Positions 12,830-60,924 of a stretch of 64,000 nt of DNA are shown here, piece by piece. A program made the position numbers and the translations under genes. The notes beneath the pieces were generated by a model. The model was not told the DNA's origin and searched no databases. It saw nothing but the letters and a program-made list of their open reading frames with translations. Numbering within the stretch: the first letter of the stretch is position 1; the number at the start of each line of letters is the position of its first letter. This DNA is from a virus. Taxonomy: Duplodnaviria > Heunggongvirae > Uroviricota > Caudoviricetes. The DNA lies in the IMG/VR virus record IMGVR_UViG_3300006217_000002; one strand, written 5' to 3'.

Positions 12830-12872
12830 GATATAAGTGGGAGGATTAATCCTCCCACTTATATCATTTTTT
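12830..12872 (+). terminator. Perfect 36-bp palindrome terminator
   Basis: GATATAAGTGGGAGGATT|AATCCTCCCACTTATATC plus T run. Confidence 0.85.
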
Positions 12873-12968
12873 TGTTTATATATTTTCATTTCGTATGTTA
12901 ATAAATCTTAAAAAATTAAGATTTGAGTATCAAATATTTAATTCTAAAAAATTTTAGAAAGGTGGAAA

Positions 12969-13205
12969 ATGATGAATAAAAAAATTATTTTGTACTCTAC
13001 TGGATGTCCTAACTGTAAACTTCTCAAAGAATATATGGATAAGAAAGATATTATATATGAAGAGAATAACTCAGTTGATGACATGGTAGCTAAAGGTTTT
13101 GATCGCGTTCCTATGTTAGAAGTCGATGGAGAAATATATGATTTCAACGAGGCGTTAATGATCATAAAAAAATATGTAATGGAGGTAAATAAAAATGAAG
13201 ACTAG
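12969..13205 (+). CDS. Glutaredoxin/NrdH-like redoxin
   Basis: LYSTGCPNC, GFDRVPMLEVDG. Confidence 0.88.
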   Translation: MMNKKIILYSTGCPNCKLLKEYMDKKDIIYEENNSVDDMVAKGFDRVPMLEVDGEIYDFNEALMIIKKYVMEVNKNED

Positions 13206-15428: not shown

Positions 15429-15607
15429 ACTATTATGAATCAGATGATAATCAAAGAGTTGATGCTATCAAAAAGGCATTAGAAAAAAATAATGGCTATT
15501 GCCCATGTAGACTTATTAAAAATGAGGATACTAAATGTCCTTGTAAAGAGTTTAGAGAAAGTAATGAGCCTGGTAAATGCCATTGCGGTTTATATGTAAG
15601 GAAATAA
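15425..15607 (+). CDS. Ferredoxin:thioredoxin reductase catalytic-subunit-like protein
   Basis: GYCPCR..KCPCKEF..CHCGLY (CPC/CPC/CHC signature). Confidence 0.85.
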   Translation: MNYYESDDNQRVDAIKKALEKNNGYCPCRLIKNEDTKCPCKEFRESNEPGKCHCGLYVRK

Positions 15608-15615
15608 TTATAATA

Positions 15616-15650
15616 AATAAGGGGTGGAATTTCCACCCCTTATTATTTTT
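15616..15650. terminator. Bidirectional terminator
   Basis: AATAAGGGGTGGAA-T-TTCCACCCCTTATT between convergent genes. Confidence 0.85.
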
Positions 15651-15666
15651 TAACGATGTTACATAC

Positions 15667-44771: not shown

Positions 44772-46733
44772 ATGGGTTTCATGGAATACTCAAACAAAAA
44801 CCAGGTAAATATCATCCCTCAGCAGGAGTTCGAAGAATTGTCTAGAGAAGTATTTGGAGTTATCTCTAGTAATCTTAGGAGATCTCTTGGACCTCTTGGT
44901 TCATCTGCTACTATTTTGGATGGAACGTTAACAGAGGCAACAAAGGATGGATATCATATTCTAATGAAATATCGTTTCTTTAATCGATATAAGAAGATGA
45001 TATATAACTTAATTAAAGCTCCTTGTACTCGTATGAATAATACTGTAGGAGATGGTACTACAACTGGTATCGTATTAACTTCTGCTATGTTTGACAGATA
45101 TCAAGATGCTAAAGGAAAACTCGTATCTATGTATCGTCTACCTAGGCAGTTCACAAAAGCGTGGGATGAAGTAATTGAGGATATTTGTAGAAGGGTATCA
45201 GAAAAATCTAAGCCTGTCGATCCTACTGATTATGATACTATCTATAATATTGCATATGTAACATCGAATGGAAATAAGGAGATCAGTGAGGCTTTTGCCA
45301 AGACATATAATGAAGCTAAATCTCCAGCAATTAAGATGAAGGATTCTCCGACCAATAAATCTTATATCAAAGAGATTGATGGTTTTGAATTTCCTGCTAA
45401 TGCTATTGATGTAGTATATGTAAGAAATCAGGATCTTACAGCTGAAGAAACCGATGTAGCAATCATGATCTTTGATCATAAAATTGGAACAGACTTCTTC
45501 AATAAAGTTCTTGTTCCGATTAACGAAGTACTTCGTGCAATGGGTAAGAAGCTCATTGTAATAGCTCCATCTTATGATGAATACATGTGTGATACTGTAC
45601 TTAGGCAGTATGTGAATTTAGAATGTAACAAGTATGGAGTTATCAATTTGATTCTTACACAGTATCGTTTAGGAGATCTTACTCCTCATCAATGTGAAGA
45701 TTTAGCAGTAGTATTGAGATGTAAAACTATCAATGAACAACTTGCTGATGGATTAGTTACTAGATTTAGTGAGAAGAACAGTGATCAGATAGTAGAAGAT
45801 ATAATTGAAAACAATGAATATGATCTATACAGAGTCATTGGTTCTGCTGCTAAAGTGTTTACATCTTGTAAGAATGGATGTATCTTTAATGTAACTGATA
45901 TTGAAGAGGATAAGGAATATCAGGAAGCTGTTACCAGAGCTAAAGCTGAACTCGATGCAGTTATAAGTAAAACTGATTTCGAAAAGCAGAGTATGGCTTC
46001 TAAGGTATACGAAGCAAGATCACGATTGATGCAACTGGAAATGAAAAACTACATCTATTATGTAGGAGCTGATAGCGAGCTTCAGAAACAGATTATTTGG
46101 GATTCAATCGATGATGTTATCAAATGCCTGAGATCAGCTATCAAGTACGGTGTAGTTCCAGGATGTCAGTTATCTATTGCGACTTCATGTGAGGAAGCAA
46201 TTACTGATATCATGGAGGAGATCAAGAAATGTCAGGATATTGAAAAGGAAATTAGTTATCAATATCCTCTTAAGATTGAAATTATTGGTATTATTTATAA
46301 TGCCGTGATTGATGTATATTCAATTCTTCTTCATGGAGCTGAAGGTCTTGGTATGGTTAAACTTATCGACGGATGGAATAAAAACAGTGATGAGTATAAT
46401 AAATTAGATGAGGCAGAAGATGCTGAAAGGGACGAAGATAAGAAGAAAGAACTACACGAGAAAAAGAAGAAAGTTCAGGATGAATATATCGATAATATTA
46501 AAGAAAAAGCTAGAGTAAAGGCTGGAGAGATCATTGCTGAATCCATTAAGGAGAATAAAGTATTTGATCTTGAAAACCTTGAATACAGTGATAAGATTAT
46601 CACATCAGCAGAAACTGATATAATGGTACTCAAGGTAGCCTCTGAACTGGTTAAGATTCTTATTAGTGGAAATCAATGTATCTTCCTTGACTCAGATGTT
46701 ACAGAATCTCATCAGGAAACTATGGAAATCTAA
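44772..46733 (+). CDS. groEL: Phage GroEL-like chaperonin
   Basis: SLGPLG, ATKDG, VGDGTTT, IAYVTSNG, GVVPG, ITSAETD. Confidence 0.9.
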   Translation: MGFMEYSNKNQVNIIPQQEFEELSREVFGVISSNLRRSLGPLGSSATILDGTLTEATKDGYHILMKYRFFNRYKKMIYNLIKAPCTRMNNTVGDGTTTGIVLTSAMFDRYQDAKGKLVSMYRLPRQFTKAWDEVIEDICRRVSEKSKPVDPTDYDTIYNIAYVTSNGNKEISEAFAKTYNEAKSPAIKMKDSPTNKSYIKEIDGFEFPANAIDVVYVRNQDLTAEETDVAIMIFDHKIGTDFFNKVLVPINEVLRAMGKKLIVIAPSYDEYMCDTVLRQYVNLECNKYGVINLILTQYRLGDLTPHQCEDLAVVLRCKTINEQLADGLVTRFSEKNSDQIVEDIIENNEYDLYRVIGSAAKVFTSCKNGCIFNVTDIEEDKEYQEAVTRAKAELDAVISKTDFEKQSMASKVYEARSRLMQLEMKNYIYYVGADSELQKQIIWDSIDDVIKCLRSAIKYGVVPGCQLSIATSCEEAITDIMEEIKKCQDIEKEISYQYPLKIEIIGIIYNAVIDVYSILLHGAEGLGMVKLIDGWNKNSDEYNKLDEAEDAERDEDKKKELHEKKKKVQDEYIDNIKEKARVKAGEIIAESIKENKVFDLENLEYSDKIITSAETDIMVLKVASELVKILISGNQCIFLDSDVTESHQETMEI

Positions 46734-46751: not shown

Positions 46752-46789
46752 ATATAGGAATGGGAGGGTGATTCCTCCCATTCCTATAT
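46752..46789. terminator. Bidirectional terminator ending the radical SAM operon
   Basis: ATATAGGAATGGGAGG-GTGATT-CCTCCCATTCCTATAT. Confidence 0.85.
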
Positions 46790-46790: not shown

Positions 46791-47336
46791 TTATTCAGCT
46801 TTTACATACACAGTCATACTCATATCTTCATAATTGGAAGATACTAACTTAAGATCTACTCTGATAATTTCATCACCAGGTCTGAAGAATACATTTGGTC
46901 TGGAATCCATGGTTATCTTAAGAATACAATATTCCTTGTCATAAAAAACATTTACATTTGGAATACTTACAAATCTTCCAAATACATTTTCTGTTCTGAC
47001 AAGTTCGAAGTCAATATCTTTCGGATATTCCTCATTAATAGGCATAGTTTCATTATTTAGTATTTCAGTGATGAGACATCCTATGTTAAGTTTACCTGTA
47101 GATGTGAATTTATCTCCATTAACTGTGATGATCTTATTAGGTAATGATTTAGCTCCCAATTTGTTATTAGAGTCATCTTCGATAATCATTTCTTCGTGTT
47201 TTTCATTAGATACCTCTTCTTCACCATTAAGCTTTCTCTGAACTGCTTCTACCATATCATCAGGAACGTCTTCCAGTGTTAACGCTTCCTTTTGAATTAA
47301 TCTTACGTAATAATTCAATAATGCTTTGTTTGTCAT
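46791..47336 (-). CDS. Hypothetical protein with N-terminal CD1375-like motif
   Basis: YYVRLIQKEALTLEDVPDDMVEAVQRKL, a small motif typical of genes next to Firmicute phage tail fibres. Confidence 0.55.
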   Translation of the reverse strand: MTNKALLNYYVRLIQKEALTLEDVPDDMVEAVQRKLNGEEEVSNEKHEEMIIEDDSNNKLGAKSLPNKIITVNGDKFTSTGKLNIGCLITEILNNETMPINEEYPKDIDFELVRTENVFGRFVSIPNVNVFYDKEYCILKITMDSRPNVFFRPGDEIIRVDLKLVSSNYEDMSMTVYVKAE

Positions 47337-47351
47337 TATGAATATCCTCCT

Positions 47352-48479
47352 TTACTTGCCGTTATATGTTAGATCATATTCTTGATCAATAAGTTGAGTT
47401 CCAATCCTTATTTTCTGAACCTTCTTTGTTCCATCTGGAACTTTAACTTTATTAACCTGGTGAATGAAACGTTGTTTTTCAAAATCAAATCTGGAAGAAA
47501 TCTCTTCCATATTAGCTCCTGCTCTTGATATAGCATTATGAATACCATTACCTCCAAAAGCAATGATAACATTATTTTTAGCTATTTCAAAATTCCTATC
47601 AATAATCCCAACGTTACAACTTGTATGGAATTGATGATATTCTGGAGTTCTTAAATAATATGGCTCTTCTTCAAATGCAATAACATCATCTATATTTAAA
47701 GATAATGATTCCGGTTTAGCTATTACGTACTCAGAATGATGATCTAAAAAGTCTTTTAAAAGCTTCCTGTAATAAATAGATTTCCCATAATAATTTTTGC
47801 ATTTGAAATTTACAGAAGAACATATTCCGTCAGGTTTTAAAAGTGAAGAAGCTATATCAAGATCATTTATGAATATTTTCCATCCGTGTTCATTATCATC
47901 ATTGAATAATGCTACAATATCGATATTAACAAACATTTTATGTTCATGAAACTTTTCTATAGCCTTCTTCATCATTTCTATATTACCAGGTATTCTCTGT
48001 TGTTCTTTATTTGAAATTTCATCGAATGATTGAACTCCAAAACTTACAGTTTTAATATTCAAATCATTAATGATAAAATCAATCATTTCATCACTAATGT
48101 CGAATGGATGAACTTCAAATGTCTTAAGTTTTATCTCATCATAGATAGGAATATTGTTAATGAGTTCAATTAATTTCTTTTTATTCCATAAAGTAGGTGT
48201 TCCTCCACCGAAATAAATATTATTTACTCTATCAGGAAAGGCATCTTTCATATCCTTTACTAAATTAACAACTGCTTCTTCATATAAACTTATTTGATTA
48301 ATATATTGATGTAGTGTATAGGAACCAAAAACACAAAACTTACAAATAGATCTACAAAAGGGAAAGTCCACATATATCTCGATTCGAGTATCATCATTTA
48401 TTGGATTATTTTTAAAATAATTTTTCCAATAGTTTACGAACTCTTCGTTATTATGAAGATAATAAGGATAAATCATCAA
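47352..48479 (-). CDS. HemN-like radical SAM enzyme (class C methyltransferase family)
   Basis: IYVDFPFCRSICKFC, IYFGGGTPT, TFEVHP, VSFGVQSFD, VNIDI, AFGG..AIS. Confidence 0.88.
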   Translation of the reverse strand: MMIYPYYLHNNEEFVNYWKNYFKNNPINDDTRIEIYVDFPFCRSICKFCVFGSYTLHQYINQISLYEEAVVNLVKDMKDAFPDRVNNIYFGGGTPTLWNKKKLIELINNIPIYDEIKLKTFEVHPFDISDEMIDFIINDLNIKTVSFGVQSFDEISNKEQQRIPGNIEMMKKAIEKFHEHKMFVNIDIVALFNDDNEHGWKIFINDLDIASSLLKPDGICSSVNFKCKNYYGKSIYYRKLLKDFLDHHSEYVIAKPESLSLNIDDVIAFEEEPYYLRTPEYHQFHTSCNVGIIDRNFEIAKNNVIIAFGGNGIHNAISRAGANMEEISSRFDFEKQRFIHQVNKVKVPDGTKKVQKIRIGTQLIDQEYDLTYNGK

Positions 48480-49294
48480 GAACCACCTCCTTTTATCAAT
48501 TCAGCAAGATGCTTAGGATATGAACAATATGGTTGTAATTTACAAGGTCTACATGTCTTTACTCTGTCACATGTATAACATTCTACAGGTGTAGTTCCAG
48601 GTAAATTGTGTGGACATCTATTAACTAAATTTCCATCAGGATATAATGTATATACATTATCACAATCATATTGCCAACTACAAATTCTATCTCCTATTTC
48701 AAATTTAGTATCTAGATCCCATAATTTATAAACTTCACATAACCATAGATCTGCTTTCTCAAAATATTCTTTTGTTACTTCTCCTACGTAATGCTCAAAC
48801 TTTATCTCCAATAAGCATTCATTGTCAAACAATTTAGCTATCTTGATAAACTCCTGAGGAGTAATTTCAAATAGGTCATCTGTTAACGTAATCATCACTG
48901 TATAATTTATTTTAGATTTTGATAATCTATAGCAATTAGCTAACCATTTGTCGAACATAGATTCAGATTTAAATCTATGGGGATTCCATGATGTTGATAC
49001 ATGATGTAGAGTTTTATAAAACTCAATAAGTTCAGAATCTAAAATAATCAGGTTTGTAGAAATAGATGAGATTTTAGAAACCCCATCCACTTTATTTGTT
49101 TCTACAACGTCATTCATTCGTTCACGATTTGAAGTGATCTCTCCTCCAAATAGAATAATTTCTCCATTGAAATTATTCAATTGACTTATGAACTTATCAC
49201 GATTAAATTCCTCAGGAGTATCGACGATAAAACAATGATCACAGTTAAGATTACATTTCATTGTAGGAATTGCATATAAAACTTTATCATCCAT
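48476..49294 (-). CDS. Radical SAM protein with Cys-rich C-terminus (SPASM/twitch-like)
   Basis: PTMKCNLNCDHC, FGGE, ISTNL; C..TLYPDG..CP..CYTC..CRPC..C. Confidence 0.85.
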   Translation of the reverse strand: MDDKVLYAIPTMKCNLNCDHCFIVDTPEEFNRDKFISQLNNFNGEIILFGGEITSNRERMNDVVETNKVDGVSKISSISTNLIILDSELIEFYKTLHHVSTSWNPHRFKSESMFDKWLANCYRLSKSKINYTVMITLTDDLFEITPQEFIKIAKLFDNECLLEIKFEHYVGEVTKEYFEKADLWLCEVYKLWDLDTKFEIGDRICSWQYDCDNVYTLYPDGNLVNRCPHNLPGTTPVECYTCDRVKTCRPCKLQPYCSYPKHLAELIKGGGS

Positions 49295-49310
49295 TATGTT
49301 TCATCCTTTC

Positions 49311-50264
49311 TCATATCCACCCATACTTTTTGAATTTATCTTTCATCTTTAACATCTCTTCGCAATGTTCAGGAGGATATTCAATTTTCTGTGATCTACA
49401 GCCATTACAAATTGGAAACAGTTCACAAAAAATACAATTAGAATTTACATGTTCTGACACATGGGGATATTTTGACTCAGGTTCTGCATTATCATTTTCA
49501 AGATCTAACAGATGTTCTTTATCGACGATATCACAGCAGTCATAGTAATGAAGAACATCATTAGCATCAACATAACATGTTCTGATCATTGCATGACATA
49601 ACATATCTTTGTTAATAGGACATTTATTCATTTCATGGAATTTACAATAGACCTCATAATCTCCTAAACCGGCTTCAATGATTTCAAAATATTTAGCAAA
49701 TAATTTGTATCTAGGATATGTTGTCTGTTGTCTTCCTTGTTTCGTTGCATTGTTTATACGTACATATGTTCCTAATCGTTTAGCAAGTTCTGCTAATTGA
49801 ATAGCTGTATCTTCATTATCTTCATCTAGAACGGCAATGAATGGAAGATCCTTTCCATTAGTATATTTTTTATACAATTCATATATTTCAATAAACTTCT
49901 CTTCAGTAAATACTGTGTTAGGATCCCATCTTCTTGTCTCTCCATAGTTGAAAGATGTTGTAATTCCTATCCAAGGTTCGTTGAATAATGGAGCCCATTT
50001 TTCTGGATGGAAATAGAAATCCTTCAAATTAGTCGTAATTGCTATATGGCAACCTGCTAACTCGTGAAGTTCATAATAGTATGAAGGATCTACCATCAAC
50101 GGTTCTCCACCACTAATGATTATTCCATTTGGTTTAATTGTTTCTATTACCTTTTTGATCTGCTCAGGTACACCATTTTTAGGATGAGATATTTCCATAT
50201 CTCCTGCTGAACAGAAGGTGCAATCAAAGTTGCACCTTCCGGTTACTCTTATAATCAATTCCAT
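49311..50264 (-). CDS. Radical SAM/SPASM maturase
   Basis: VTGRCNFDCTFC, SGGEPL, TTNL; CP..C..CC..CIFCELFPICNGC..C. Confidence 0.88.
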   Translation of the reverse strand: MELIIRVTGRCNFDCTFCSAGDMEISHPKNGVPEQIKKVIETIKPNGIIISGGEPLMVDPSYYYELHELAGCHIAITTNLKDFYFHPEKWAPLFNEPWIGITTSFNYGETRRWDPNTVFTEEKFIEIYELYKKYTNGKDLPFIAVLDEDNEDTAIQLAELAKRLGTYVRINNATKQGRQQTTYPRYKLFAKYFEIIEAGLGDYEVYCKFHEMNKCPINKDMLCHAMIRTCYVDANDVLHYYDCCDIVDKEHLLDLENDNAEPESKYPHVSEHVNSNCIFCELFPICNGCRSQKIEYPPEHCEEMLKMKDKFKKYGWI

Positions 50265-50267
50265 ATG

Positions 50268-51512
50268 TTACTTGACCTCCGATCCATTATTACCAATTAA
50301 GCTATCGATAACTTTCTGAATATCGTCTTCCAATTTTGAATTAGCTTCTTTTTCCAAGTTACTTTGAACTTCCAAGATCTTCTTTTCATTATTTTCTAAC
50401 ATATCAGGATCTACGAGTTTATCGAAATATCTAACTTTCATATGTCCAATATCGCTGAATAACTTATAGAAAGCAATATTATATTCCTTTTCTCTTGTGC
50501 GAACAAATGCTGAATTAGGATCTTCGTCTCTATAAAGTAGAATATAAGGCTCAAACATATTTACCATATATTCAGTAGATTTACATATAATATTCCGAAG
50601 AGATTCATCTCTATCAACCATTGCATCTACAATACGATTTCTTACAGTATCTTCATTCGATAAATACACTACTGCAGGGACAGAAGGAATCTTTAGAAGT
50701 TTTGCAATGAAAAGGATAACATTATCTTTGATATCAACTGCTGATAGTACTTCACCATTCATTCTTAAGAATATTGGATCTTTGATTCCATTCTTTAAAA
50801 TATCCTCATAAAGAATATTAAATTCCTCCGAGTTCATATCACCAAATACATGATCATTTTTATCCATATCCCAGTTATATACACTTGGATGAAGTGGTTG
50901 ATATCTATAATAGTTATACGGGATATCAACACATAAAACATGAATAGGATCCTGAAGAGACGGAATCAATAATCCTGATTCATAAACCTCTGTTCCGAAT
51001 GAAGTATAATGCATACTCTTAAATTGTTTGAAGTCATGTTGTTTTAGTACGATGGCTTTATCTACTGATAAAACACTATGAAGATCTACTCTATCACGAA
51101 TAATAGATGGTCTCCTATCAATATCAAATAGGTCCTCTCCATTATAAATTGTAACCATTGCATCTTCATTATGTTCAATTACATACTTAATATAGTATGG
51201 GTGTACTATATACTTCTCATGACCGCCGACATATTCAGACACGGAAAATGCATCGCGTATATTTGATAAATTAATTGAATCATCAAGATCTATAGAATCA
51301 AGATCATCAATTTCTGCTTTGTCTGATTCATAAAATAGAACATCTTTAATTTCCATTAGATTTCTAAACTCTTCCATTGTCAATCTAATGGTCTGTCTAG
51401 TTCTTACAGCAGAAGATGCGTATTCCATATCTATAACAGGATTCATTATAAGATTACTTGTAAGATTAGGAAACTTACAAACGTTTCTAATCTGGTCTTT
51501 GATATTATCCAT
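50268..51512 (-). CDS. Hypothetical protein in the radical SAM operon, with a ParB/Srx-like segment
   Basis: LYEDILKNGIKDPIFL..AKLLKIPSVPAVV; RBS AGGAGG favours ATG 51512. Confidence 0.55.
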   Translation of the reverse strand: MDNIKDQIRNVCKFPNLTSNLIMNPVIDMEYASSAVRTRQTIRLTMEEFRNLMEIKDVLFYESDKAEIDDLDSIDLDDSINLSNIRDAFSVSEYVGGHEKYIVHPYYIKYVIEHNEDAMVTIYNGEDLFDIDRRPSIIRDRVDLHSVLSVDKAIVLKQHDFKQFKSMHYTSFGTEVYESGLLIPSLQDPIHVLCVDIPYNYYRYQPLHPSVYNWDMDKNDHVFGDMNSEEFNILYEDILKNGIKDPIFLRMNGEVLSAVDIKDNVILFIAKLLKIPSVPAVVYLSNEDTVRNRIVDAMVDRDESLRNIICKSTEYMVNMFEPYILLYRDEDPNSAFVRTREKEYNIAFYKLFSDIGHMKVRYFDKLVDPDMLENNEKKILEVQSNLEKEANSKLEDDIQKVIDSLIGNNGSEVK

Positions 51513-52239
51513 TATCATTTCCTCCTTGTAAAGAATCATTTAAATTGTTTATAAATTCTTGCTGAAGTTCGGGACTGCCGAACATTATTAACATAAAATC
51601 GATATATGGTAAATTATCCATTATTTTGCTTAAATAAAAAGCATTATCGAAATTATTAAAAATATTCTTGAAATATTTTGGTTGAGAATTTTCTTCCAAA
51701 AGAAGATTGAATGATGGAAATTGAGTAAGCTGATAAAAGTTACACATTGAAATGTTATCTTCTTCAGATACATCAAATTCACTTAGATCAAATCCTTCCT
51801 TGTCCTCTTCATGAAATGTAGATATCGCATATAGAGGTAGTGAATTTATAAACTCATGAATCACTGAGATAAACCCACTGTGATTACTATTAAACTTTTT
51901 GATTTCATTTTCATCCAAGATAGAGTATTTATTTATAGCATCAGAATTGTGTAATATTTCAATCCATGAAATTGCTAGTTCTTCGGACTTAACTTCAATT
52001 CCAGATGTCATCCATAACATCAAAAACTCATCTTTATCTTCATAAGAACATTTACTGAAATCCAATTTCATTTTAATACCGCTATTTCTGATAAAAATGA
52101 AACTAGCAAGTTTTTGTTTATCAATTGGAACAGGAAAGTCTCCAATATCAGACATATCAACAACCAACTCATCTGATTCATTAATACTGGTTATGAATCC
52201 AGGAATCAGTAAGTCTTTCATAGATATATGTTTAAGCAT
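51505..52239 (-). CDS. Hypothetical protein in the radical SAM operon
   Basis: 244-aa ORF coupled to its neighbours. Confidence 0.65.
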   Translation of the reverse strand: MLKHISMKDLLIPGFITSINESDELVVDMSDIGDFPVPIDKQKLASFIFIRNSGIKMKLDFSKCSYEDKDEFLMLWMTSGIEVKSEELAISWIEILHNSDAINKYSILDENEIKKFNSNHSGFISVIHEFINSLPLYAISTFHEEDKEGFDLSEFDVSEEDNISMCNFYQLTQFPSFNLLLEENSQPKYFKNIFNNFDNAFYLSKIMDNLPYIDFMLIMFGSPELQQEFINNLNDSLQGGNDNG

Positions 52240-52257
52240 ATTTGCTATCTCTCCTTC

Positions 52258-52821
52258 TTACTTATAACAACTTGATTTAGAATGGCAATCAGAGTGGCAA
52301 TTTGAATGACAACGAGAATGACATAAGTCAACTCTTTTGACATTATTATGCTTATTCGCACTTCTCCATGATGCTAATAAATTAGCAAATAAAGTATTAA
52401 TAGAACGAATAGAAATAGTTCCATCAAGTGCAACTCCACCATTAGCAACTGCAGGAAGAGATTTAATATAGTTCGAATTAAACAAAGCTCTTCCTGATCC
52501 TGAACGTTGAACACTTATGTTTCCATTGGTATTGTAAGTTCTAGTATAAGTCCATGTTCCAACTCTGGTCAGGATTCGAGTTACCTCTACAAGATTATTA
52601 TAAATCTGAGAAGCTGAAATAGCTCCATCTTTAACTCCTACAGAAGGATTAGGTACAGATGAAAGAGCTCCTAAAATTGAAGCAGGTACCATTTCATATG
52701 AACCATCCATAGGTACATTTCCAGAATGGTTTACTCCACTAAGAATAGTGTTTTTTACCTGAGAAATAAAATCATTATTGATCGCACCTGTTGTGATAAC
52801 AGTATCTACAGTCATAGCCAT
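52258..52821 (-). CDS. Putative radical SAM substrate/virion protein with C-terminal (CHSx)4 repeat
   Basis: Ends LCHSRCHSNCHSDCHSKSSCYK; first gene of the operon; N-terminal part is S/G/N/T-rich like tail components. Confidence 0.7.
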   Translation of the reverse strand: MAMTVDTVITTGAINNDFISQVKNTILSGVNHSGNVPMDGSYEMVPASILGALSSVPNPSVGVKDGAISASQIYNNLVEVTRILTRVGTWTYTRTYNTNGNISVQRSGSGRALFNSNYIKSLPAVANGGVALDGTISIRSINTLFANLLASWRSANKHNNVKRVDLCHSRCHSNCHSDCHSKSSCYK

Positions 52822-52852: not shown

Positions 52853-52864
52853 TAAATAGTTGTA
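52853..52864 (-). promoter_or_regulatory. Putative late promoter for the radical SAM operon
   Basis: Minus strand reads TACAACTATTTA (TACA-N6-TA). Confidence 0.4.
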
Positions 52865-52892
52865 AAGAAAACCTATTCAAATTTATAAAAGA

Positions 52893-52920
52893 GTGTATGG
52901 AGAGATATCTCTCCATACAC
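52893..52920. terminator. Perfect 28-bp palindrome separating tail-fibre genes from the radical SAM operon
   Basis: GTGTATGGAGAGAT|ATCTCTCCATACAC. Confidence 0.75.
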
Positions 52921-52939
52921 TTGTGTTTACAGTTATTTT

Positions 52940-53425
52940 TTAAGAAGCAAATACAGCTTTGAGTGCTACCCATTTATTTCCATGATAAACATACGGAATG
53001 AAATTCGTTGTATTAATCCAAAGCTCCTTATCGTTCTTAGGATTAGATGGAGATGAACTCTTGATAGATACGCGAATACCGTTAACAGTATCACTGTTAC
53101 CTCCACCTGCTTTGAATGTTTCAGGAATTTCAAGAAGATCAGGATATCTACCTGTATGAGCTACAACACTCAATCCTGTAATCATTGTATACGGGTGAGT
53201 AGGTGGATGAGGGTTGTTAAGAGCTCCATCTTCAATACCAGCAAGTTTGCTCTTCTCTGCGTTTGTATAATCATTAGTACTAAACCCAGGAACAGTACCA
53301 TTTCCAAGACGGTGGTTTGCTACTCCCCCAGATCCAAGATGATTAGCAAAATCAACTACTACCTTATCCCACTTAGTACGCTCTTCAATACTAACGTGTT
53401 GTTTGATATCAGCATTATTAGGCAT
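52940..53425 (-). CDS. Short tail-fibre-like protein
   Basis: HVSIEERTKWD, STNDYTNAEKSKLAGIEDGA, HPPTHP..ITGL, PSNPKNDKELWINT: Firmicute phage fibre motifs. Confidence 0.7.
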   Translation of the reverse strand: MPNNADIKQHVSIEERTKWDKVVVDFANHLGSGGVANHRLGNGTVPGFSTNDYTNAEKSKLAGIEDGALNNPHPPTHPYTMITGLSVVAHTGRYPDLLEIPETFKAGGGNSDTVNGIRVSIKSSSPSNPKNDKELWINTTNFIPYVYHGNKWVALKAVFAS

Positions 53426-53439
53426 ATAAGTTTCCTCCT

Positions 53440-56400
53440 TTATTTAAATTTCCTTATAGGCAATGTATCAGTTGAGTTAGGACATTTCTCTTTAAACTTA
53501 GCAGCTCCATCTCCAGCAATAGTAATACCTGTGCTGAATGTAGTTTTACTACGTTCGAAACATCCAAATGTTAAACCATTGATTTCCATTCCTTCTGCAG
53601 CTGCAGCTGATACTGTAATGGTAGAAATCATATTCCAAGTGTCTCTCATAAATCCTCTCATATTAGCAGTACCTGCTAAAGCGTTAGGAAGAGTAAGTGC
53701 TTTGTTAAATGAGATACATCTGAACAAGAAATGATCCAAACATCTTGCTCCTGTAACGCCAGCAGGGATAGTAAGAGCCTGATTGAACGTACTGCAATAT
53801 TCTAAGAATCTCATCAAACATTGCTCGCCAGTTAAACTAGCAGGGATAGTAAGAGCCTGATTGAACTTAGTACAGCCAGAAAGAAATCTCTTCATAGCTC
53901 CTTTACCTGTAACGCCAGCAGGGATAGTAACTGCACTATTGAATGCTGTACAATTCTTCAAAAATCCATGTAAACATTCTTCTCCTGTAACGCCAGCAGG
54001 GATAGTAAGAGCCTGATTGAACTTAGTACATCCTTCCAGGAATTCCATTAAGCAGCGATCTCCTGTAACATTTGGAATTCTATTAACTTTAACAAGGTTA
54101 ATGAAGTTACATCCAAAACTACGTAAAGATGTAGGAACTGTCAATCCCGTATCAGCTTTCCAGAATTCAACTTCAGTAATATCGCTCTTCTTAAATACTT
54201 TTCCAGCAATATTAATATTTGAATTTGCTACCCTATGATTACATAATCTACTTAACTGAGACATCCATTTGATTATAACTGTTTCCCCACTAGCAAGTTT
54301 CACTTTAGCTAAAGGATCATCATCAGTAGCTTTAGTTTTATTAGGATCTTCTGCAATAGTTATTTCAAAATCCTGATAATATGATTCTGCCTGGAATACA
54401 ATTTTTTCAGGATCATTTTCTTTTGCATCTTTATACCATTCATAAGCTTCATGTTTACCCTGAGGAACTTCAGCTCTGATTTTAATCTTCTTTCCAACAT
54501 CTTCATTACCAATGGTAAGTGTTCCATCATTTGTAATACTTGTGCCAGTAGTTCCCCCGCTGTCAATCAACGACCATCTTACATCAGTATAGCTAGGAAC
54601 TTCTTCATCATACGTATTACTTTGCCTGTTTCCGATAACTTTATTTGTGTGACATTTAGGATCCAATACATATGAATTATCAGTTCCATTGACATAAACG
54701 GTTTCAGGAATATTAACTATGTTAGCAACTTCCATATATTCAGGAAGAAATGTTACATAGTAGCTATGTTCCCATGTAGAATTTGTTTCAGGTGTAACTT
54801 TTTCAATTCCATTAGGAACAGCAAATACGAATTTTGTAACTCCATCCTCGTAATTATAAAGGTAATAACAATCCATATTCCAGTCATAATCAGGATTGAA
54901 TTCAATGTTGTAATTCGTCTCCCAGTAATTCTGACTTTCAGTTCTAGGTCTAAAGGCTGTACATAATCCTCCTTTAAACTCAGGATCATTCGGTCTAATA
55001 GGAGAAACTTCAATTGACTGACCTGTTGCATTGAAAGGATCCGTTCCAAAACATAACATTGGTATTGGTCTCTTTGCTCTTATAATGGAGGGAAGATTCA
55101 TTCTAATACCTTCTACAGCAACGAATATATCAGGCGAAGCAGGAGGTACAATCGTAATACTAGCTGTTGCTACAAAATTAACTCCTCTTCGAACACCGTC
55201 TACAACTGTCATCTCAACCACTATAGGATCATTTATATTTTTAAGCCATTGATCAAAATAATCAGGAGGTGTAGGAGAAGGATTTCTGTTCCACCATGTT
55301 ACATTTTCATAGTCGATAACTAGCTGATTCTGTAAATTAAGACTGACTCTTGCAGCTGCTGGAGCGCTCTTAATTTTATATATGATATTTTTCATCGTAG
55401 CGTTAGATGGATACACGGTACCTGTTAAGTTCAAAGGCTCGTCAACAGGATCAAAGTTTTCAGGCATATTAGTAATGCTTTCAACAGATATCCACTCACT
55501 TCCTACGTTGATTGTGAATGTTCTTTCGTAGTTTACAGTTTCAGAGATACCTTTAACAATGGTAGCTTTAATTTTCAATGTACCAGCTCCTGTTGTAGAA
55601 AGTAAATCTCCATTCAATCTTGCTCCAGTAGTTCCAGCATCAGCAATACTATAACTAACATTTCTATATGTTGCATTTTCTGGTGTAACATTAGCTGTTA
55701 GTAATATAACCTCTTTAGCAATAATTGTACTATCGATTTGTAGAGTTACTCCTTCTACCGGAACAAACTTTGTTTTCACATCAATCCAAAAATCTCTTGT
55801 ATAATCCTGACTAGGACTTATACCTTTTCTTACAGTAGCTCTGATTAAACATGTACCAGCTACTCGAGCTCTTAAGTAACCATTATTGATATATGCTCCT
55901 GTACCTCTGGCATCAAGAATTGACCATTCGATTGTTTTAACAGAAGCATCACTTGGTTCAACGATTCCATTTAATAGAATATTGGTATCTGTATCAATAG
56001 TAGTTGAGATCCCTGAAACATTTGTAACTGATACATATCTCGGTACCACTACAGTACATGAAGCTGATAATTTTCCGTCAATAGTTGTAGCTGTAAATGT
56101 AACTGATCCTTCATTAATTACTGAAATAACTCCAGTATCTTTGTTAATACTAGCTACATATGAGTTAGAGCTATTCCATACTACTTTAGGTAAGTCAGCT
56201 GCTGCGGCATCTTTACCAATCTCAAGTTTATAAGTTGAATCTATATAAAGCTTTTCAGGAGCATTACTAATAAAGATAGATCCTAACTCTGCCGATACAT
56301 AGACATCACAGATATCTGAGAATACGTCTCGAGCTCCAGCTGCTGATACTTTACAATAGTAATAGAAATGACCAATTCTATTATATGGAACATTAAACGA

Positions 56401-57540
56401 AGATGATGTTTCTCCAGTTAATTCAGTACCATTCTCTGTAGACTTGGTAGAATTTCTATACCATTGATATTGCATGATTTTTGTAGTCGTTGAAGTTGCA
56501 TTTACAGCTAAAATATCTCCAGCTTTGTTCAGTGTAAGATTGATATTGGGAACTGGCTGACTGATAATTTGGATTTCATTTTCAACAGCTCTCACATTGA
56601 AATTTTTGAAATAACTTTTATCTGGACCAAGAGCCTTAGGAATAGTACATTTTAAAACAACAACTCCTGTTGATGTAGCTATAAGCTTATTATTTTCAAT
56701 TACAGCGTTACCAGATACTACTTCCCACACAGTACTCTGAACTGTTGCGTTGTATGGAAGAACTGTCATTTCTTCAAGAACGAATGGAACGTTTGTTACA
56801 ATATTATCAGGTAAACCGATTATATCAGTAACCGGAATAAATGCAGCTTCACCACTTTGAGGTTCAACATTAAGTACAGCTTTATCACTTCTATATACCA
56901 GTACTCCAGGAGAATTAGAAGGATATGCTGTATCCATTGTAAACCTGATAACAGCATTGTCTCTATTTGTGAACATTACTGTTGCATTACGCAATGTGAT
57001 GATAGATCCATCCCCCATTCTAACTCCCCAGTGGTTAGGATCATTACTGATAGTAAATACAACATCTGTAGACTGATTGGGAAATGGTATTGTAGCCTGT
57101 AGAGTTTTTGTATATCCATACTCTAAATTAGCTCCAGTGTTATCATCTATTGTAAATGCAAAGTATCCGCAAATGCTATTCATTTCAAACGGCCTTACAT
57201 CACTTCTTGCAGTAATTCCCCATGATGCAGTATCACTTCGATACATAAGAAAACATGGAGAGTTTGCAGGATATTTTTTATCCATAGTAAATAAGACTAT
57301 GGAATTATCTTTGTTAACAAATAATATTTCAGGGTCACGAATGGGGATGATAGATCCATCCCCCATTTGTGCAGCCCAATCTTCATGGCCTCTGCTGATA
57401 GTCAAATTGACATCACTAGCCTGAAGAGGATATGTTAATGCAAAAATACATTTGTTTGTATCACCATTACTATCACTGAGATTTCCGGTAGTGTCAATAG
57501 TAAACCCGTAAAATCCAGTTTTAGTATTTTTTATACCCAT
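53440..57540 (-). CDS. Large adhesin/receptor-binding protein: two N-terminal shared domains, multiple Ig-like (Big_2) domains, C-terminal BspA/DUF285-like LRR
   Basis: Repeated V.P.NAT.K.I.WS motifs; YQWY..YYYC Ig; 26-aa FNQALTIPAGVTG..CL..FL..C repeats. Confidence 0.8.
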   Translation of the reverse strand: MGIKNTKTGFYGFTIDTTGNLSDSNGDTNKCIFALTYPLQASDVNLTISRGHEDWAAQMGDGSIIPIRDPEILFVNKDNSIVLFTMDKKYPANSPCFLMYRSDTASWGITARSDVRPFEMNSICGYFAFTIDDNTGANLEYGYTKTLQATIPFPNQSTDVVFTISNDPNHWGVRMGDGSIITLRNATVMFTNRDNAVIRFTMDTAYPSNSPGVLVYRSDKAVLNVEPQSGEAAFIPVTDIIGLPDNIVTNVPFVLEEMTVLPYNATVQSTVWEVVSGNAVIENNKLIATSTGVVVLKCTIPKALGPDKSYFKNFNVRAVENEIQIISQPVPNINLTLNKAGDILAVNATSTTTKIMQYQWYRNSTKSTENGTELTGETSSSFNVPYNRIGHFYYYCKVSAAGARDVFSDICDVYVSAELGSIFISNAPEKLYIDSTYKLEIGKDAAAADLPKVVWNSSNSYVASINKDTGVISVINEGSVTFTATTIDGKLSASCTVVVPRYVSVTNVSGISTTIDTDTNILLNGIVEPSDASVKTIEWSILDARGTGAYINNGYLRARVAGTCLIRATVRKGISPSQDYTRDFWIDVKTKFVPVEGVTLQIDSTIIAKEVILLTANVTPENATYRNVSYSIADAGTTGARLNGDLLSTTGAGTLKIKATIVKGISETVNYERTFTINVGSEWISVESITNMPENFDPVDEPLNLTGTVYPSNATMKNIIYKIKSAPAAARVSLNLQNQLVIDYENVTWWNRNPSPTPPDYFDQWLKNINDPIVVEMTVVDGVRRGVNFVATASITIVPPASPDIFVAVEGIRMNLPSIIRAKRPIPMLCFGTDPFNATGQSIEVSPIRPNDPEFKGGLCTAFRPRTESQNYWETNYNIEFNPDYDWNMDCYYLYNYEDGVTKFVFAVPNGIEKVTPETNSTWEHSYYVTFLPEYMEVANIVNIPETVYVNGTDNSYVLDPKCHTNKVIGNRQSNTYDEEVPSYTDVRWSLIDSGGTTGTSITNDGTLTIGNEDVGKKIKIRAEVPQGKHEAYEWYKDAKENDPEKIVFQAESYYQDFEITIAEDPNKTKATDDDPLAKVKLASGETVIIKWMSQLSRLCNHRVANSNINIAGKVFKKSDITEVEFWKADTGLTVPTSLRSFGCNFINLVKVNRIPNVTGDRCLMEFLEGCTKFNQALTIPAGVTGEECLHGFLKNCTAFNSAVTIPAGVTGKGAMKRFLSGCTKFNQALTIPASLTGEQCLMRFLEYCSTFNQALTIPAGVTGARCLDHFLFRCISFNKALTLPNALAGTANMRGFMRDTWNMISTITVSAAAAEGMEINGLTFGCFERSKTTFSTGITIAGDGAAKFKEKCPNSTDTLPIRKFK
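53632..54021 (-). repeat. Five tandem 78-bp (26-aa) LRR-coding repeats
   Basis: Units start at 54021, 53943, 53865, 53787 and 53709; 41-bp exact identity between 53748-53788 and 53982-54022. Confidence 0.9.
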
Positions 57541-57558
57541 AATCCGTTTCCTCCTTCC

Positions 57559-60500
57559 TTAATCTGTCTTCAATTCAATCCATGCTCTACTAGATCTATA
57601 TACTAACTGACATGGAGAGTTTGCAGGATATGGAGTATCAAGCTTGAACTGTACAACTGCATTAGATTCGGTGCGTTCAATTACTTCAGGTTCATTGATT
57701 TTAATCATAGTACCATCACCCATCTTGACAGCAAATACATTCTTCTCTTTAGATACATTGATAGCGAAGTTCATGTCTTTCATCGGAGGATAAGGAATTG
57801 CAACCCATACATATTCAACCTGACCATGTTCATCAGCTCCATTAACAGAAACTGTGAATGCACTATATCCGGCCATACGGTTGATGATTGTCTCTTCATC
57901 AGGATCATCCGGATCAATTTCAGGTTTACCAGGACCAAATGAGATATCAGATTGACCAGTTCCTGGAACAGGATTAATTAATTGCCATCTTTCACCATCA
58001 AATACAAACATGTGTTCATGGTTCTTACCAATCATACCATCTGTAAGCGTTTTACCTCCAAAACGAACTTCTGCATCACCTGTTTCATTTACATTGAGAT
58101 ACGTTGGATTATCTCTGCCTCCGCTCTTATCTTCATTCTTAAACATAATAGATACTGTTGAACCTATTTGTCTCATAAATACAACAGGATTCATATAAGT
58201 AGATCTCAAAGTTGCAACTTTATGAGATTCATTTCCATTTGAATAACAATCACCCTTTATTACACCTATAGCATTTCTTCTAATCCACTCTGTATTAGCT
58301 ATACAATGATCATTAGAATCATCAGGAGGTGTAGGAGTTTTAGGTTCTCCAGTAAATTCATACTGATTATGAGCTTCATCAGGCCAATGCATAGGAGCAC
58401 GTGTAGTATCGGTAGGATGTCGGTGATCTCCTCTAGCATAATATCCGTCATCAGTACCTACAAACGGAATACCATCCATCAATGGATCAACATTTGTTGA
58501 ACGAGTATGTCCAAACAAATCAACAGTGGCTCTTCCAAAAGTACTTCCAGATGGAGAAGTATGAACCTTTGGAGCTTTTGTAAGATTCAGATAACGACCC
58601 ATATTCGCCGATAACGCAGCTATTTCATTACTTGATTCAAGGTGATCTATTACATCTATTCCTGACATATCATGGATTATCTGTAATACATCTTCTACGT
58701 CTGCTTTCTTTTGATTTAAGATACGACCCATATTAGCAGACAGCGGTCTATCTGTTTCATAGGAGATGAGATTATCAATTACAATAGATTTGACAAACTC
58801 TGTAGTTGCAATACGAACTGATCTATCTCCAACAGGTTGAGTTGTAGTTGTAGGAGATTCTCTTAAGTTAACAGATGCAATGATGTCATCTCCTGTAATT
58901 GTGTCAGGTATAATTGTAGCCTTAATATTTCCATCAGTATCTACATCTACTTTGATATTCTTACTATTTACACCTAAGTATTTAGTAACTAATCTCTTGA
59001 TGTTAATTCTATGCTCATCTGCATTAGGAAGTACGAGGACTAGTTCACTATTTACATCATCAAAGTAAAGAGATTTAAATATAGGAATAATAGGAATTTC
59101 CAAATCGAATTCTGTACCATCACGATAGTTGAAAGTAATTGTACAAGTACTATCTTCCCAACTTACATTAGCTACAAAATTATTATTACCAACATCTTCC
59201 TGAAGCAGATTCAGTTGTCTCTTAATTCGGTCTATAGCTTCTTGTGTAGCATCTGATATAGGTTTATCTTTATCAGATGTATTATCTACATTAGGTATTC
59301 CTAATTGTTCTAATGTTACATTATGAGGATTATTAAAATTAGAAATATGCTCCAAAAATAAAGAGTTAGAAACTGCACCAATCTGTTCAGGTGTAACTCT
59401 ATGAGGATTGTTGTAATCATTTAAGTGATCATTCAGTCTATTTCTTACAACTGCAATATCACCAAGATCTACAATAATCTGCTGAATTCTATCTTTAAGA
59501 AGATCGATTTGTTCTGTTGCAGCACGTTGAGTAATGAAACCATCAGAGTTAGTTCCAGTCTCATCATACCATTTAGGTCTTCCATTAATAGAATCCCAGT
59601 TGACAATTCCATCCGGTAATCCTCCACCAGCTAGAATATAATCTCCTAATACATCAGTTAGCGATTTCCATACTGTATCAAAATCATCATCACTAACTTT
59701 AACTAAGATATCATTAGCTGTACCACCATCAGGAACGCCTTCACCATCAGCTCCATCAAAGTAATCAACTCCTTTAATAGGAGAATAACCTTGAGGTCCT
59801 CTGATAGTCATAGGATCAGGAGCTGTAACTTCAGTAGATCTAGTCCACGTTAAAATTCCATCTGAAGAGATTATAGGTCTCCACATTAAAATGCTTTCAC
59901 CTGCATCTCCTCCTTCATCATCTGCTGCACTTCCATCAAACAGATTAATGAATCTTCCCTGCATCCATACATACATCTGAGTATCATAGTACCTGATTAC
60001 AAGATCACCAGGTTTCATTTCCTGTACTCCAACTTCTTGCCATACAAGACCAGGTTTCTTTACATAAATAATACAATCCTGAGTTTCATCAGTCGAGTAG
60101 TCGGTCGCTGGTTTTAATGCAAAATAAGTTAAAGTAGGATCTGTAACTTCAGGAAGCTCATCACCATGAGCCAATACATAGTTTGGATTCCAGTTAACAG
60201 ATTCATATTCAACTAATACAGCTGTATTAGTTCTATCATCATATTCAATGTTTTTATAATTGAAGAAAGAGTCTCTGATTTCTTTGATCATTTCATCAAT
60301 TTCTTTCCTACTATATGTTCCAACTTGATGGGCTGTTACATTATGAGGATTATTGATATCTAAAATGTGTTCATTTAAATCAGATTGATCTGCTTTCTTA
60401 TTCCAACTCTCCCTTTCATCCATAGTAATATGAACAAACTGATCTGTTATATGATGATTAAAATCTTGGGCTGGAGCCATACTATTCCATTTATCCCGTT

Positions 60501-60924
60501 CTTCTTCAGTGATGTGAATATCCTTATCACGCACATGTGCTTCAAAAGTTGCAGCAGAAACTTTTGTATCCATCATTTCTCCTACAGCTCTTTCCGAAGG
60601 AACTTTCGAATGAGACCTAGCATTAGGCTCTCTATTAATAGTTTTAATGATTTCAGTCTCACCTACAACGCCATCTATTCCACTCCATGTCATTAATTTA
60701 CCAGCACCGCCTCCAGAAAGAATTGGCTGCTTTTCTGCAATAAGTCTATATATGGCATTAATTTCTTCAGTGAGAGTAGTGGAATCATCATCGAAAGTTT
60801 TACGAATTGCATCATATACCGTTTTAGGATATGTATAGTCATAATCATAAACGGGAATTGGTTCTTGCTTTCCATCCAGATAAATTCTGGACTGAACAAT
60901 TCTTCTTTCTTTCAATCGTCCCAT
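57559..60924 (-). CDS. Long tail fibre protein
   Basis: Repeated H..D.NNPH.VT..Q.G and HITEEER.KWN fibre motifs, NVDNTSDKDKPIS, ALSANMG, YARGDHRHPTDTTRA. Confidence 0.85.
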   Translation of the reverse strand: MGRLKERRIVQSRIYLDGKQEPIPVYDYDYTYPKTVYDAIRKTFDDDSTTLTEEINAIYRLIAEKQPILSGGGAGKLMTWSGIDGVVGETEIIKTINREPNARSHSKVPSERAVGEMMDTKVSAATFEAHVRDKDIHITEEERDKWNSMAPAQDFNHHITDQFVHITMDERESWNKKADQSDLNEHILDINNPHNVTAHQVGTYSRKEIDEMIKEIRDSFFNYKNIEYDDRTNTAVLVEYESVNWNPNYVLAHGDELPEVTDPTLTYFALKPATDYSTDETQDCIIYVKKPGLVWQEVGVQEMKPGDLVIRYYDTQMYVWMQGRFINLFDGSAADDEGGDAGESILMWRPIISSDGILTWTRSTEVTAPDPMTIRGPQGYSPIKGVDYFDGADGEGVPDGGTANDILVKVSDDDFDTVWKSLTDVLGDYILAGGGLPDGIVNWDSINGRPKWYDETGTNSDGFITQRAATEQIDLLKDRIQQIIVDLGDIAVVRNRLNDHLNDYNNPHRVTPEQIGAVSNSLFLEHISNFNNPHNVTLEQLGIPNVDNTSDKDKPISDATQEAIDRIKRQLNLLQEDVGNNNFVANVSWEDSTCTITFNYRDGTEFDLEIPIIPIFKSLYFDDVNSELVLVLPNADEHRINIKRLVTKYLGVNSKNIKVDVDTDGNIKATIIPDTITGDDIIASVNLRESPTTTTQPVGDRSVRIATTEFVKSIVIDNLISYETDRPLSANMGRILNQKKADVEDVLQIIHDMSGIDVIDHLESSNEIAALSANMGRYLNLTKAPKVHTSPSGSTFGRATVDLFGHTRSTNVDPLMDGIPFVGTDDGYYARGDHRHPTDTTRAPMHWPDEAHNQYEFTGEPKTPTPPDDSNDHCIANTEWIRRNAIGVIKGDCYSNGNESHKVATLRSTYMNPVVFMRQIGSTVSIMFKNEDKSGGRDNPTYLNVNETGDAEVRFGGKTLTDGMIGKNHEHMFVFDGERWQLINPVPGTGQSDISFGPGKPEIDPDDPDEETIINRMAGYSAFTVSVNGADEHGQVEYVWVAIPYPPMKDMNFAINVSKEKNVFAVKMGDGTMIKINEPEVIERTESNAVVQFKLDTPYPANSPCQLVYRSSRAWIELKTD

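Follow-up and report, generated by a model that had tools for sequence, protein, structure and literature searches.

A cluster of seven genes from a tailed virus (Caudoviricetes) probably represents the oxygen-independent subtype of a widespread, uncharacterised large-phage cassette that matures one virion protein after translation. The genes occupy the minus strand at positions 46791-52821 of a 64,000-nucleotide stretch of the IMG/VR record IMGVR_UViG_3300006217_000002 (the window). They are co-oriented and tightly packed between two strong hairpins, with junctions ranging from a 35-bp overlap to an 18-bp gap, and lie directly after tail-fibre and immunoglobulin (Ig)-like adhesin genes identified by PHROG tail-fibre matches. 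These coordinates and hairpin pairs confirm the layout given in an initial sequence-only reading, which had also proposed that radical S-adenosylmethionine (SAM) enzymes of the cluster modify a Cys-His-tailed virion protein in the manner of a ribosomally synthesised and post-translationally modified peptide (RiPP). Comparative evidence and the presence of a family member in virions support such maturation, while we infer that the tail is the substrate, what chemistry (including methylation) it undergoes and where in the virion, such as the tail tip, it resides.

The candidate substrate is the 187-residue product of the first gene (52258-52821, minus strand). Its C-terminus reads CHSR-CHSN-CHSD-CHSK-SSCYK, as described beforehand, and all five of its cysteines fall within the last 21 residues. 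This tail, of the form (C-H-S-x)4-SSCYK, comprises residues 167-187 (about 52261-52323). A word-based search with the protein returned 12 relatives, and a profile search of 1.84 billion representatives (clusters at 50% identity) returned 497 clusters at E <=0.001 and 216 at E <=1e-10. The bodies of these proteins have diverged to 20-30% identity, and a terminal series of C-H-x-x units is retained in nearly every member. Inspection of a 42-member alignment with 28% mean column identity reveals invariant columns only at P37, C167, H168, C171, H172, C175 and H176. Over 237 distinct members the unit consensus is C-H-[SGANT]-[SND]: position 2 is His in 93% and otherwise Tyr, Asn or Asp, position 3 is a small residue, and position 4 is Ser, Asn or Asp in 89% (S 56%, N 22%, D 10.5%). 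Three units are present in 172 of the 237 members and four to eight in 55. The commonest ending is RGRR, and the ending of the window subtype is CYK. By this measure of conservation, the C-terminal Cys-His tail is the most conserved, selected feature of the family. A link to CXXX-repeat radical SAM targets, suggested earlier, was not borne out, where TIGR04117 gave no match to the 187-residue protein and faint matches to 3 of the 42 relatives (best E 0.0023).

Structure prediction indicates that the 187-residue protein is a full-size folded protein rather than a free peptide, in keeping with the sequence-only reading. AlphaFold2 produced a confident alpha/beta domain for residues 1-166 (predicted local distance difference test, pLDDT, 82.8; predicted template modelling score, pTM, 0.78), followed by a disordered tail with pLDDT below 50, in which a short low-confidence helix is placed at residues 169-176. 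The domain appears to be new. Foldseek against the PDB gave nothing at E <=0.001, and the best match in the VIA wide fold search (Z 4.3, root-mean-square deviation 5.2 over 134 residues) did not amount to a solved fold. The domain model does match uncharacterised phage proteins in BFVD, one of them from phage Atu_ph07.

To learn how the tailed gene is organised elsewhere, 80 IMG/VR loci and 5 genome loci were fetched with the family profile, and 84 of them were counted as real. Radical SAM genes of SPASM type adjoin the tailed gene in 84 of these 84 loci, with conserved gene order; in all, the cassette was found at 96 IMG/VR loci. In the reverse direction, the tailed protein is present in each of the 15 GenBank phage records carrying a homolog of the 317-residue enzyme of the cluster, namely the Ralstonia RSF1/RSL2 group, Burkholderia FLC6/FLC8/SURPRISE13, Pseudomonas pPa_SNUABM_DT01, Agrobacterium Atu_ph07 and Sinorhizobium Phosso. 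Both directions uphold the tailed protein and the SPASM enzymes as a unit. Searches of GenBank phages by tblastn succeeded with family queries from RSF1 and Atu_ph07 and gave no matches with the window protein or its relative P0044, since sequence divergence within the family is too great and low-complexity masking hides the tail. The nearest relatives of the window are IMG/VR contigs of ~289 kb, and no DNA similarity to the cluster was found among GenBank phages.

Two main arrangements account for the gene order. Window-type loci present a fibre gene, a ~165-residue fibre-motif protein, the tailed protein, proteins of ~245 and ~375-423 residues, the 317-type and 272-type enzymes and sometimes a HemN-like enzyme. 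RGRR-type loci present a large protein, a ~150-175-residue cupin, a radical SAM enzyme, the tailed protein, proteins of ~240 and ~370 residues and a set of downstream enzymes, comprising at least three radical SAM proteins (one of them 317-type) and 2-oxoglutarate (2OG)-Fe(II) oxygenases. In contrast, the window subtype has neither cupin nor 2OG-Fe(II) oxygenases and carries the HemN-like radical SAM enzyme instead. The two types look like oxygen-independent and oxygen-dependent versions of one cassette. An anaerobic host, which the sequence-only reading had invoked, is not required for the family as a whole; most members come from phages that infect aerobes (Ralstonia, Burkholderia, Pseudomonas, Agrobacterium), and there the radical SAM enzymes are joined by oxygenases. 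In the minimal locus, L004, the tailed protein and the partner encoded next to it are accompanied only by two radical SAM enzymes. The core of the cassette thus consists of the tailed protein with its partner, plus the 317-type SPASM enzyme and at least one further enzyme of SPASM type.

Several features of individual loci are recorded here in their own right. In three RGRR-type loci of aerobic hosts (L007, L008, L047) the cupin lies directly upstream and two to three 2OG-Fe(II) oxygenase-like genes lie downstream. A third tail type, CHSN-CHGS-CHGS-L/I with no RGRR, occurs in L025, L035, L048, L065, L067, L072, L087 and L088; there the radical SAM types are only the upstream one and the 317-type, and the downstream genes differ. 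Tail type and enzyme set co-vary among loci, and lineage may account for this co-variation. In a distant jumbo phage (L003, positions 1-17202 of an IMG/VR contig of ~290 kb), at least six radical SAM/SPASM paralogs surround two tailed proteins, both ending in CHCARW, and the 309-residue one is transcribed divergently.

The family is overwhelmingly, though not strictly, viral. A tblastn search of one genome each of 185,579 species gave five hits. One of these (L093) has neither a tailed open reading frame nor a radical SAM gene, and the remaining four (L089-L092) are metagenome-assembled genomes of Bdellovibrio-type predatory bacteria with an RGRR-type cassette. These four cassettes contain six or seven radical SAM genes with a B12-binding radical SAM gene nearby, and FabH and acyl-CoA ligase genes flanking L091 give that locus a cellular-looking context.

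Evidence that a tailed protein reaches the virion comes from Atu_ph07, whose gp170 has the same domain, measures 296 residues and 31.89 kDa and ends in CHSS-CHAS-CHNS-RSRR. Because it is listed in the published virion proteome, gp170 is considered particle-associated; it was identified by 8 unique peptides with 35.16% coverage in gel bands 1-9 and was most abundant in band 1 (PMC6102473 Table S5). In the same gel, other proteins of ~30 kDa peak in bands 7-8, proteins of 127-139 kDa in bands 1-2 and tail fibres of 61-81 kDa in band 2 (PMC6102473). That is to say, gp170 runs far above its size, behaviour also seen with covalently linked species or with fibre oligomers that resist SDS. Table S5 also lists the upstream gp176 and gp177, and omits the adjacent radical SAM proteins gp165, gp168 and gp171, the partner gp169 and the cupin gp172 (PMC6102473). 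Fusion proteins agree with this: in P0104 a Gly_rich_2 fibre-type domain is linked to the tailed-family domain, and the 309-residue tailed protein of L003, which ends in CHGS-CHCARW, is a paralog of two neighbouring fibre-like proteins. Two further entries concern the same table, where gp321 (36 kDa) is one other small protein peaking in the top band and gp180, a 4449-residue 'virion structural protein' encoded upstream of the cassette, is not listed (PMC6102473 Table S5).

The second gene of the cluster (51505-52239, minus strand) encodes a 244-residue protein with no family match. A partner of ~240 residues always directly follows the tailed gene, and its homology extends across both subtypes (hhalign probability 98.5%, E 1.6e-15), with homologs in cultured phages that include pPa_SNUABM_DT01 gp64, Atu_ph07 gp169 and RSF1 ORF073. 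AlphaFold2 models it confidently (pLDDT 85.9, pTM 0.83), and fold searches gave no usable match (best Z 3.6; Atlas TM-scores <=0.33). Prediction of a complex between the 244- and 187-residue proteins gave ipSAE values of 0.77, 0.77 and 0.73, against 0.00 for the best of three controls, with a partner pLDDT of at least 82 and a contact agreement between runs of at least 43%. For calibration, 58 of 80 solved complexes and 2 of 110 mismatched pairs attained this ipSAE mark; these counts apply only approximately because our own alignments were fed to the prediction. No similar complex has been solved, so the score does not stem from a memorised structure. Inspection of the predicted interface reveals that it is formed by helix 70-86 and neighbouring strands of the folded domain, with the tail outside; besides the tail, the helix 70-86 region is the best-conserved stretch of the protein (A70, T81, T85). 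These predictions support binding of the partner to the folded domain, and the partner is probably a dedicated adaptor or chaperone.

Three genes of the cluster encode radical SAM enzymes, as had been claimed, and for each the evidence differs in kind. The 317-residue enzyme (49311-50264, minus strand) matches PF04055 with 53 bits, above the gathering cut-off of 29.5 bits, and combines the CX3CX2C motif with invariant C214, C242, C276, C279, C285, C288 and C300. Its orthologs occur in every subtype, and on this distribution it is the universally conserved maturase of the cassette. A profile of the family gives a full-length alignment (E 2.7e-10) to anSME, the anaerobic sulfatase-maturating enzyme (PDB 4K37). 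The 272-residue enzyme (48476-49294, minus strand) reaches only 21.4 bits on PF04055, under the cut-off; its assignment is carried by a phrog_1802 match of 1.1e-16 and by an invariant CX3CX2C motif (C14, C18, C21), which together with eight more cysteines in SPASM pattern is invariant in seven orthologs. RGRR-type loci carry a distant relative of it, the radical SAM gene placed immediately before the tailed gene.

The sequence-only reading had called for comparison of these enzymes with models of SPASM, CXXX-repeat maturase and HemN proteins. In hidden Markov model (HMM) searches the window enzymes themselves gave no SPASM match at E 0.01 and did not match the CXXX-repeat maturase. SPASM cysteine patterns are nonetheless in place: both families carry the seven to eight conserved C-terminal cysteines of the domain, scored as C-x9-15-G-x4-C ... 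C-x2-C-x5-C-x2/3-C ... C, a pattern for two auxiliary clusters. The paralog beside the tailed gene in an RGRR-type locus passes the SPASM model TIGR04085 with 29.5 bits against a cut-off of 27 and shows weak matches to YhhB, PapB, anSME and DynA (cyclophane and thioether maturases, and anSME). Single-sequence matches to the named maturases PapB, HxsC, YhhB, DynA and WgkB were all far under their cut-offs. By their sequence patterns, the 317- and 272-residue enzymes therefore fall within the SPASM protein/peptide-maturase radiation and in no named family.

The third enzyme, of 375 residues (47352-48479, minus strand), matches PF04055 with 68.9 bits and has an invariant CX3CX2C motif and an invariant SAM-binding GGGTP motif. 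Its description as HemN-like fits its motifs and its best matches, with scores that lie far under the cut-offs for ChuW (69.9 against 400 bits), HemN (64.3 against 324.95 bits) and HemW (61.7 against 205.4 bits). The alignments span just the N-terminal ~200 residues of this class-C-type enzyme and leave its C-terminal half unmatched; PDB 1OLT is matched with E 2.8e-8. The gene is restricted to part of the window subtype, being absent from L004, L034 and RGRR-type loci. The 423-residue protein (50268-51539, minus strand) has no family match, belongs to the window subtype only and is missing in L004. The 181-residue product of the last gene (46791-47336, minus strand) is not conserved with the cassette. 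On this distribution, the HemN-like, 423-residue and 181-residue proteins are accessory rather than core.

Taken as a whole, these observations would fit the following course of events. The 187-residue protein would be the substrate, with its folded N-terminal domain acting as a built-in, 'leader-like' recognition module. The 244-residue partner would bind this domain and keep the disordered (C-H-x-[S/N/D])n tail free, so that the two SPASM enzymes (317 and 272 residues) could modify the tail by hydrogen abstraction. Cys thioether crosslinks, His-to-C-beta crosslinks or both would be the most likely products. The HemN-like enzyme might add a further, possibly methyl-type, change, and in phages of aerobic hosts the accessory tailoring would fall to cupin and 2OG oxygenases in its place. 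The finished protein would be built into the virion with the tail-fibre module, and the enzymes and partner would stay behind. Considered by analogy, the invariant Cys and the Ser, Asn or Asp at position 4 fit thioether links of ranthionine type, and the His-x-[S/N/D] triplets fit His-to-C-beta cyclophanes as well as the +8 Da change described for HxsA. As each cassette holds two to seven enzymes, these chemistries may also occur in combination.

A number of points weigh against this interpretation. Modification has so far been observed in no family member, and the co-occurrence of tailed protein and enzymes partly reflects shared ancestry. The virion evidence derives from one polyethylene glycol-purified preparation of a distant RGRR-type homolog, and the FLC6 list of virion-type proteins is without the corresponding gene (PMC8066314). 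The calibration of the complex score is approximate, as described above. The hairpin between the cluster and the fibre genes means that co-transcription is not implied. Finally, a stripe of Cys and His with a period of four could simply bind metal.

This last point leads to an alternative in which the tail is an unmodified metal-binding element (Zn, Fe or Fe-S) of an oligomeric fibre-type protein and the enzymes act elsewhere, on another fibre protein or on a cofactor later bound by the tail. T4 fibre tips contain His-coordinated metal sites. The period-4 spacing would place Cys and His on one face of a helix, such as the low-confidence one predicted at residues 169-176, the residues that sometimes replace His (Tyr, Asn, Asp) are also possible metal ligands, and the top-band migration of gp170 resembles that of SDS-resistant fibre oligomers in the same gel. 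Metal binding nevertheless leaves unexplained why every locus holds two to seven enzymes of SPASM maturase type with a dedicated partner, and why position 4 of the unit is constrained to Ser, Asn or Asp. The minimal cassette L004, moreover, holds no other conserved candidate substrate. We regard this alternative as unlikely, though it deserves to be taken seriously.

It is highly improbable that the tail is the end of a long-leader RiPP precursor, cut off and released as a free bioactive peptide such as a toxin, signal or metallophore. The gene does stand first in its unit beside maturases, as in RiPP clusters, and the tail is short and disordered. HMM scans with protein families detected no protease or exporter in the window cluster, an absence the sequence-only reading had pointed out, and the conserved, folded domain at the N-terminus greatly exceeds known leaders in size. 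Release of a peptide also sits poorly with the presence of gp170 in virions at 35% coverage and with the fusions to fibre-type domains. Even less is to be said for enzymes that build or attach a tetrapyrrole-type or other cofactor, with the C-x3-C-H units as variant haem-c attachment motifs and the HemN-like and NirJ/Ahb-like enzymes as tetrapyrrole enzymes, an idea to which we give very little credence. Overlapping CX3CH strings are present in the tail, and NirJ, AhbC, AhbD, HemN, ChuW and HemW are among the weak hits of the three enzymes in NCBIfam. Those matches are, however, far under cut-off and mostly confined to the generic core of radical SAM proteins. SPASM enzymes such as NirJ and the Ahb proteins are just the closest kin of peptide maturases. 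Most of the family lacks the HemN-like gene, and no haem-lyase or tetrapyrrole pathway genes are present. All three alternatives account less well for the conserved enzyme-partner-tail unit than does maturation of the tail.

Radical SAM maturation of full-size proteins has precedents in HxsA (PMC13128918) and CrpA/CrpC (PMC13692751). In its logic, the closest characterised system is the bacterial HXS antiphage system (HxsA/B/C/D; TIGR03976-03979), whose substrate is a full-size protein bearing five HxS repeats and whose maturases are two radical SAM enzymes working with a helper (Li et al., Nat Commun 2026, PMC13128918). HxsA acts on phage DNA entry in the periplasm, blocking it, and a +8 Da change on SHRSS has been reported for it; the HXS paper mentions no phage counterpart (PMC13128918). 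The architecture of the phage cassette is analogous, with a full-size candidate substrate, tandem repeats, radical SAM enzymes with a small putative helper and the phage-envelope arena, and most C-H-x-[S/N/D] units of the phage family contain an H-x-S string. The two systems differ in that the window triplets are HSR, HSN, HSD and HSK, where the third position after His is R, N, D or K and not Ser, and in that phage units start with an invariant Cys that HxsA lacks. The phage repeats are C-terminal, the phage protein has no detected peptidoglycan-binding domain or signal peptide, and the system is phage-encoded with its product in the virion. Against HxsC (cut-off 267.9 bits) the 317-residue enzyme reaches 27.6 bits, with an alignment confined to residues 6-60 and thus to the generic core, and the HMM scan of window proteins gave no match to HxsA, HxsB or HxsD.

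Other systems resemble the cassette in single respects. The enzyme anSME (PDB 4K36-4K39), the best solved-structure match of the 317-residue family over its full length, is likewise a minimal radical SAM and SPASM enzyme, and its target, a Cys or Ser side chain that it oxidises, lies in a full-size protein. In contrast, the phage cluster has no sulfatase gene or C/S-x-P/A-x-R motif, and no window enzyme matched the anSME model TIGR03942 at E <=0.01. Ranthipeptide systems such as PapB/PapA, whose freyrasin has six Cys-X3-Asp motifs (PMC9413430), resemble it in that SPASM enzymes act on regularly spaced Cys with a polar acceptor nearby, and CrpC/CrpA, which forms protein ranthionines, demonstrates that such crosslinks can form on proteins (PMC13692751). 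PapB (NF047865) is also the only named family aligned over nearly the whole 317-residue enzyme (residues 3-289), at 18.8 bits and E 7.7e-4 against a cut-off of 340, which places the enzyme outside that family. The invariant His has no counterpart in ranthipeptides, and a folded virion protein with a separate partner stands in place of a leader peptide bound by a RiPP recognition element.

Triceptide maturases such as HtkB and HaaB act on His motifs and link His C2 to the C-beta of residue 3 (PMC11499958). The His-x-[S/N/D/K/R] triplets of the tail fit this aromatic-x-x pattern, and matches to YhhB, AmcB, FxsB and GrrM were found, weak and all far under cut-off. Triceptides differ in being made from short peptide precursors, and cyclophane chemistry leaves the invariant Cys unexplained. 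The CXXX-repeat system (TIGR04117) shares a period-4 Cys repeat and a predicted radical SAM target; neither the 187-residue protein nor the maturase model gave a match, and that system is itself uncharacterised. Judged by sequence, the cassette is a member of none of HXS, PapB, anSME or the CXXX-repeat system.

The surroundings of the cluster complete the picture. The window is phage DNA, as indicated by PHROG family matches for tail-fibre, virion structural, RusA and polymerase genes; no tRNA genes were found in it. The tail-fibre module (52940-60924, minus strand) encodes a 1121-residue fibre, a 1366-residue Ig-like/leucine-rich repeat (LRR) adhesin and a 161-residue fibre-motif protein, the last of which directly precedes the tailed gene in all window-type loci. 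A terminator-like hairpin at 52892-52921 (minus strand; 13 pairs followed by a T-run) closes the fibre/161-residue transcription unit upstream of the cluster, and a second one at 46752-46789 (16 pairs, minus strand) ends the cluster itself. A scan of the region for sigma-70-type promoters gave a signal no higher than shuffles. The late-type motif TACAACTATTTA at 52853-52864, proposed in the sequence-only reading, proved to be at chance level, with 16 matches at <=2 mismatches versus 17.5 expected. Likewise, the CD1375-like identity given there for the 181-residue protein did not hold; its weak XkdX/CD1375-like N-terminus scores 20.1 bits on NF040910 against a cut-off of 22.5, over residues 10-38 only. 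For the 423-residue protein, a ParB_N identity of its central region was too weak to adopt (Atlas feature score 0.90; Pfam E 0.18 in one of five orthologs), and homology to the ~370-residue gene at the same position of RGRR-type loci was rejected at an hhalign probability of 0.7%.

Neighbouring genes include a divergent, phage-encoded GroEL-like chaperonin of 653 residues (44772-46733, plus strand), which adjoins the cassette on the opposite strand and scores 53.8 bits on Cpn60_TCP1 and ~100 bits on GroEL models, the latter far under cut-off. The 1366-residue adhesin (53440-57540, minus strand) contains Ig-like domains (phrog_215, phrog_341) and, towards its C-terminus, repeats such as FNQALTIPAGVTG that resemble LRR/BspA units; its orthologs measure 1593 residues in the closest relative, L001, and 1973 residues in L006. 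In L001, a 337-residue Cys-rich protein on the opposite strand (10949-11962, minus strand) replaces the 181-residue last gene of the window. The phiKZ-like Ralstonia phages phiRP12 and phiRP31 have a radical SAM cluster of another kind immediately following two YomR-like tail proteins, with a 537-residue radical SAM protein, a 360-residue 'Fe-S oxidoreductase' and MoaA-like and MgoB-like proteins, and this may be another fibre-linked cassette (PMC5468394 supplementary tables).

Literature searches found no paper on this system, only mentions at the level of annotation; papers on cultured phages, among them that on FLC6 (PMC8066314), name these genes only 'radical SAM proteins' or Fe-S oxidoreductases. 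Nor did the searched literature yield a virus-particle protein matured enzymatically by radical SAM chemistry. The known covalent strengthening of phage particles, for example by HK97-type isopeptide bonds, is autocatalytic. The window adds an oxygen-independent subtype with a (C-H-S-x)4...CYK tail, two SPASM enzymes and one HemN-like enzyme, and no oxygenases.

As to function, we offer as speculation, and with little confidence, that a radical-SAM-made Cys-His tail works in envelope penetration or DNA entry, either as a covalent staple or as a modified His/Cys array with a periplasmic role. If this were true, a staple locking a fibre or baseplate component into an SDS-resistant assembly would explain the 31.9-kDa gp170 in the top band, and the HXS defence effector would be a functional counterpart or mimic of the phage element. 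The cassette in Bdellovibrio-type predators, which breach the envelopes of their prey, would fit as well. The cassette is common, occurring in hundreds of large phages that include the biocontrol and therapy jumbo phages RSL2/RSF1, FLC6, Atu_ph07 and pPa_SNUABM_DT01. Of interest are its new substrate family, the possibility of new chemistry on proteins at a C-H-x-S motif, two proteins for which no fold is known, the naturally occurring oxygen-dependent and oxygen-independent versions, and a link to HXS defence that can be tested.

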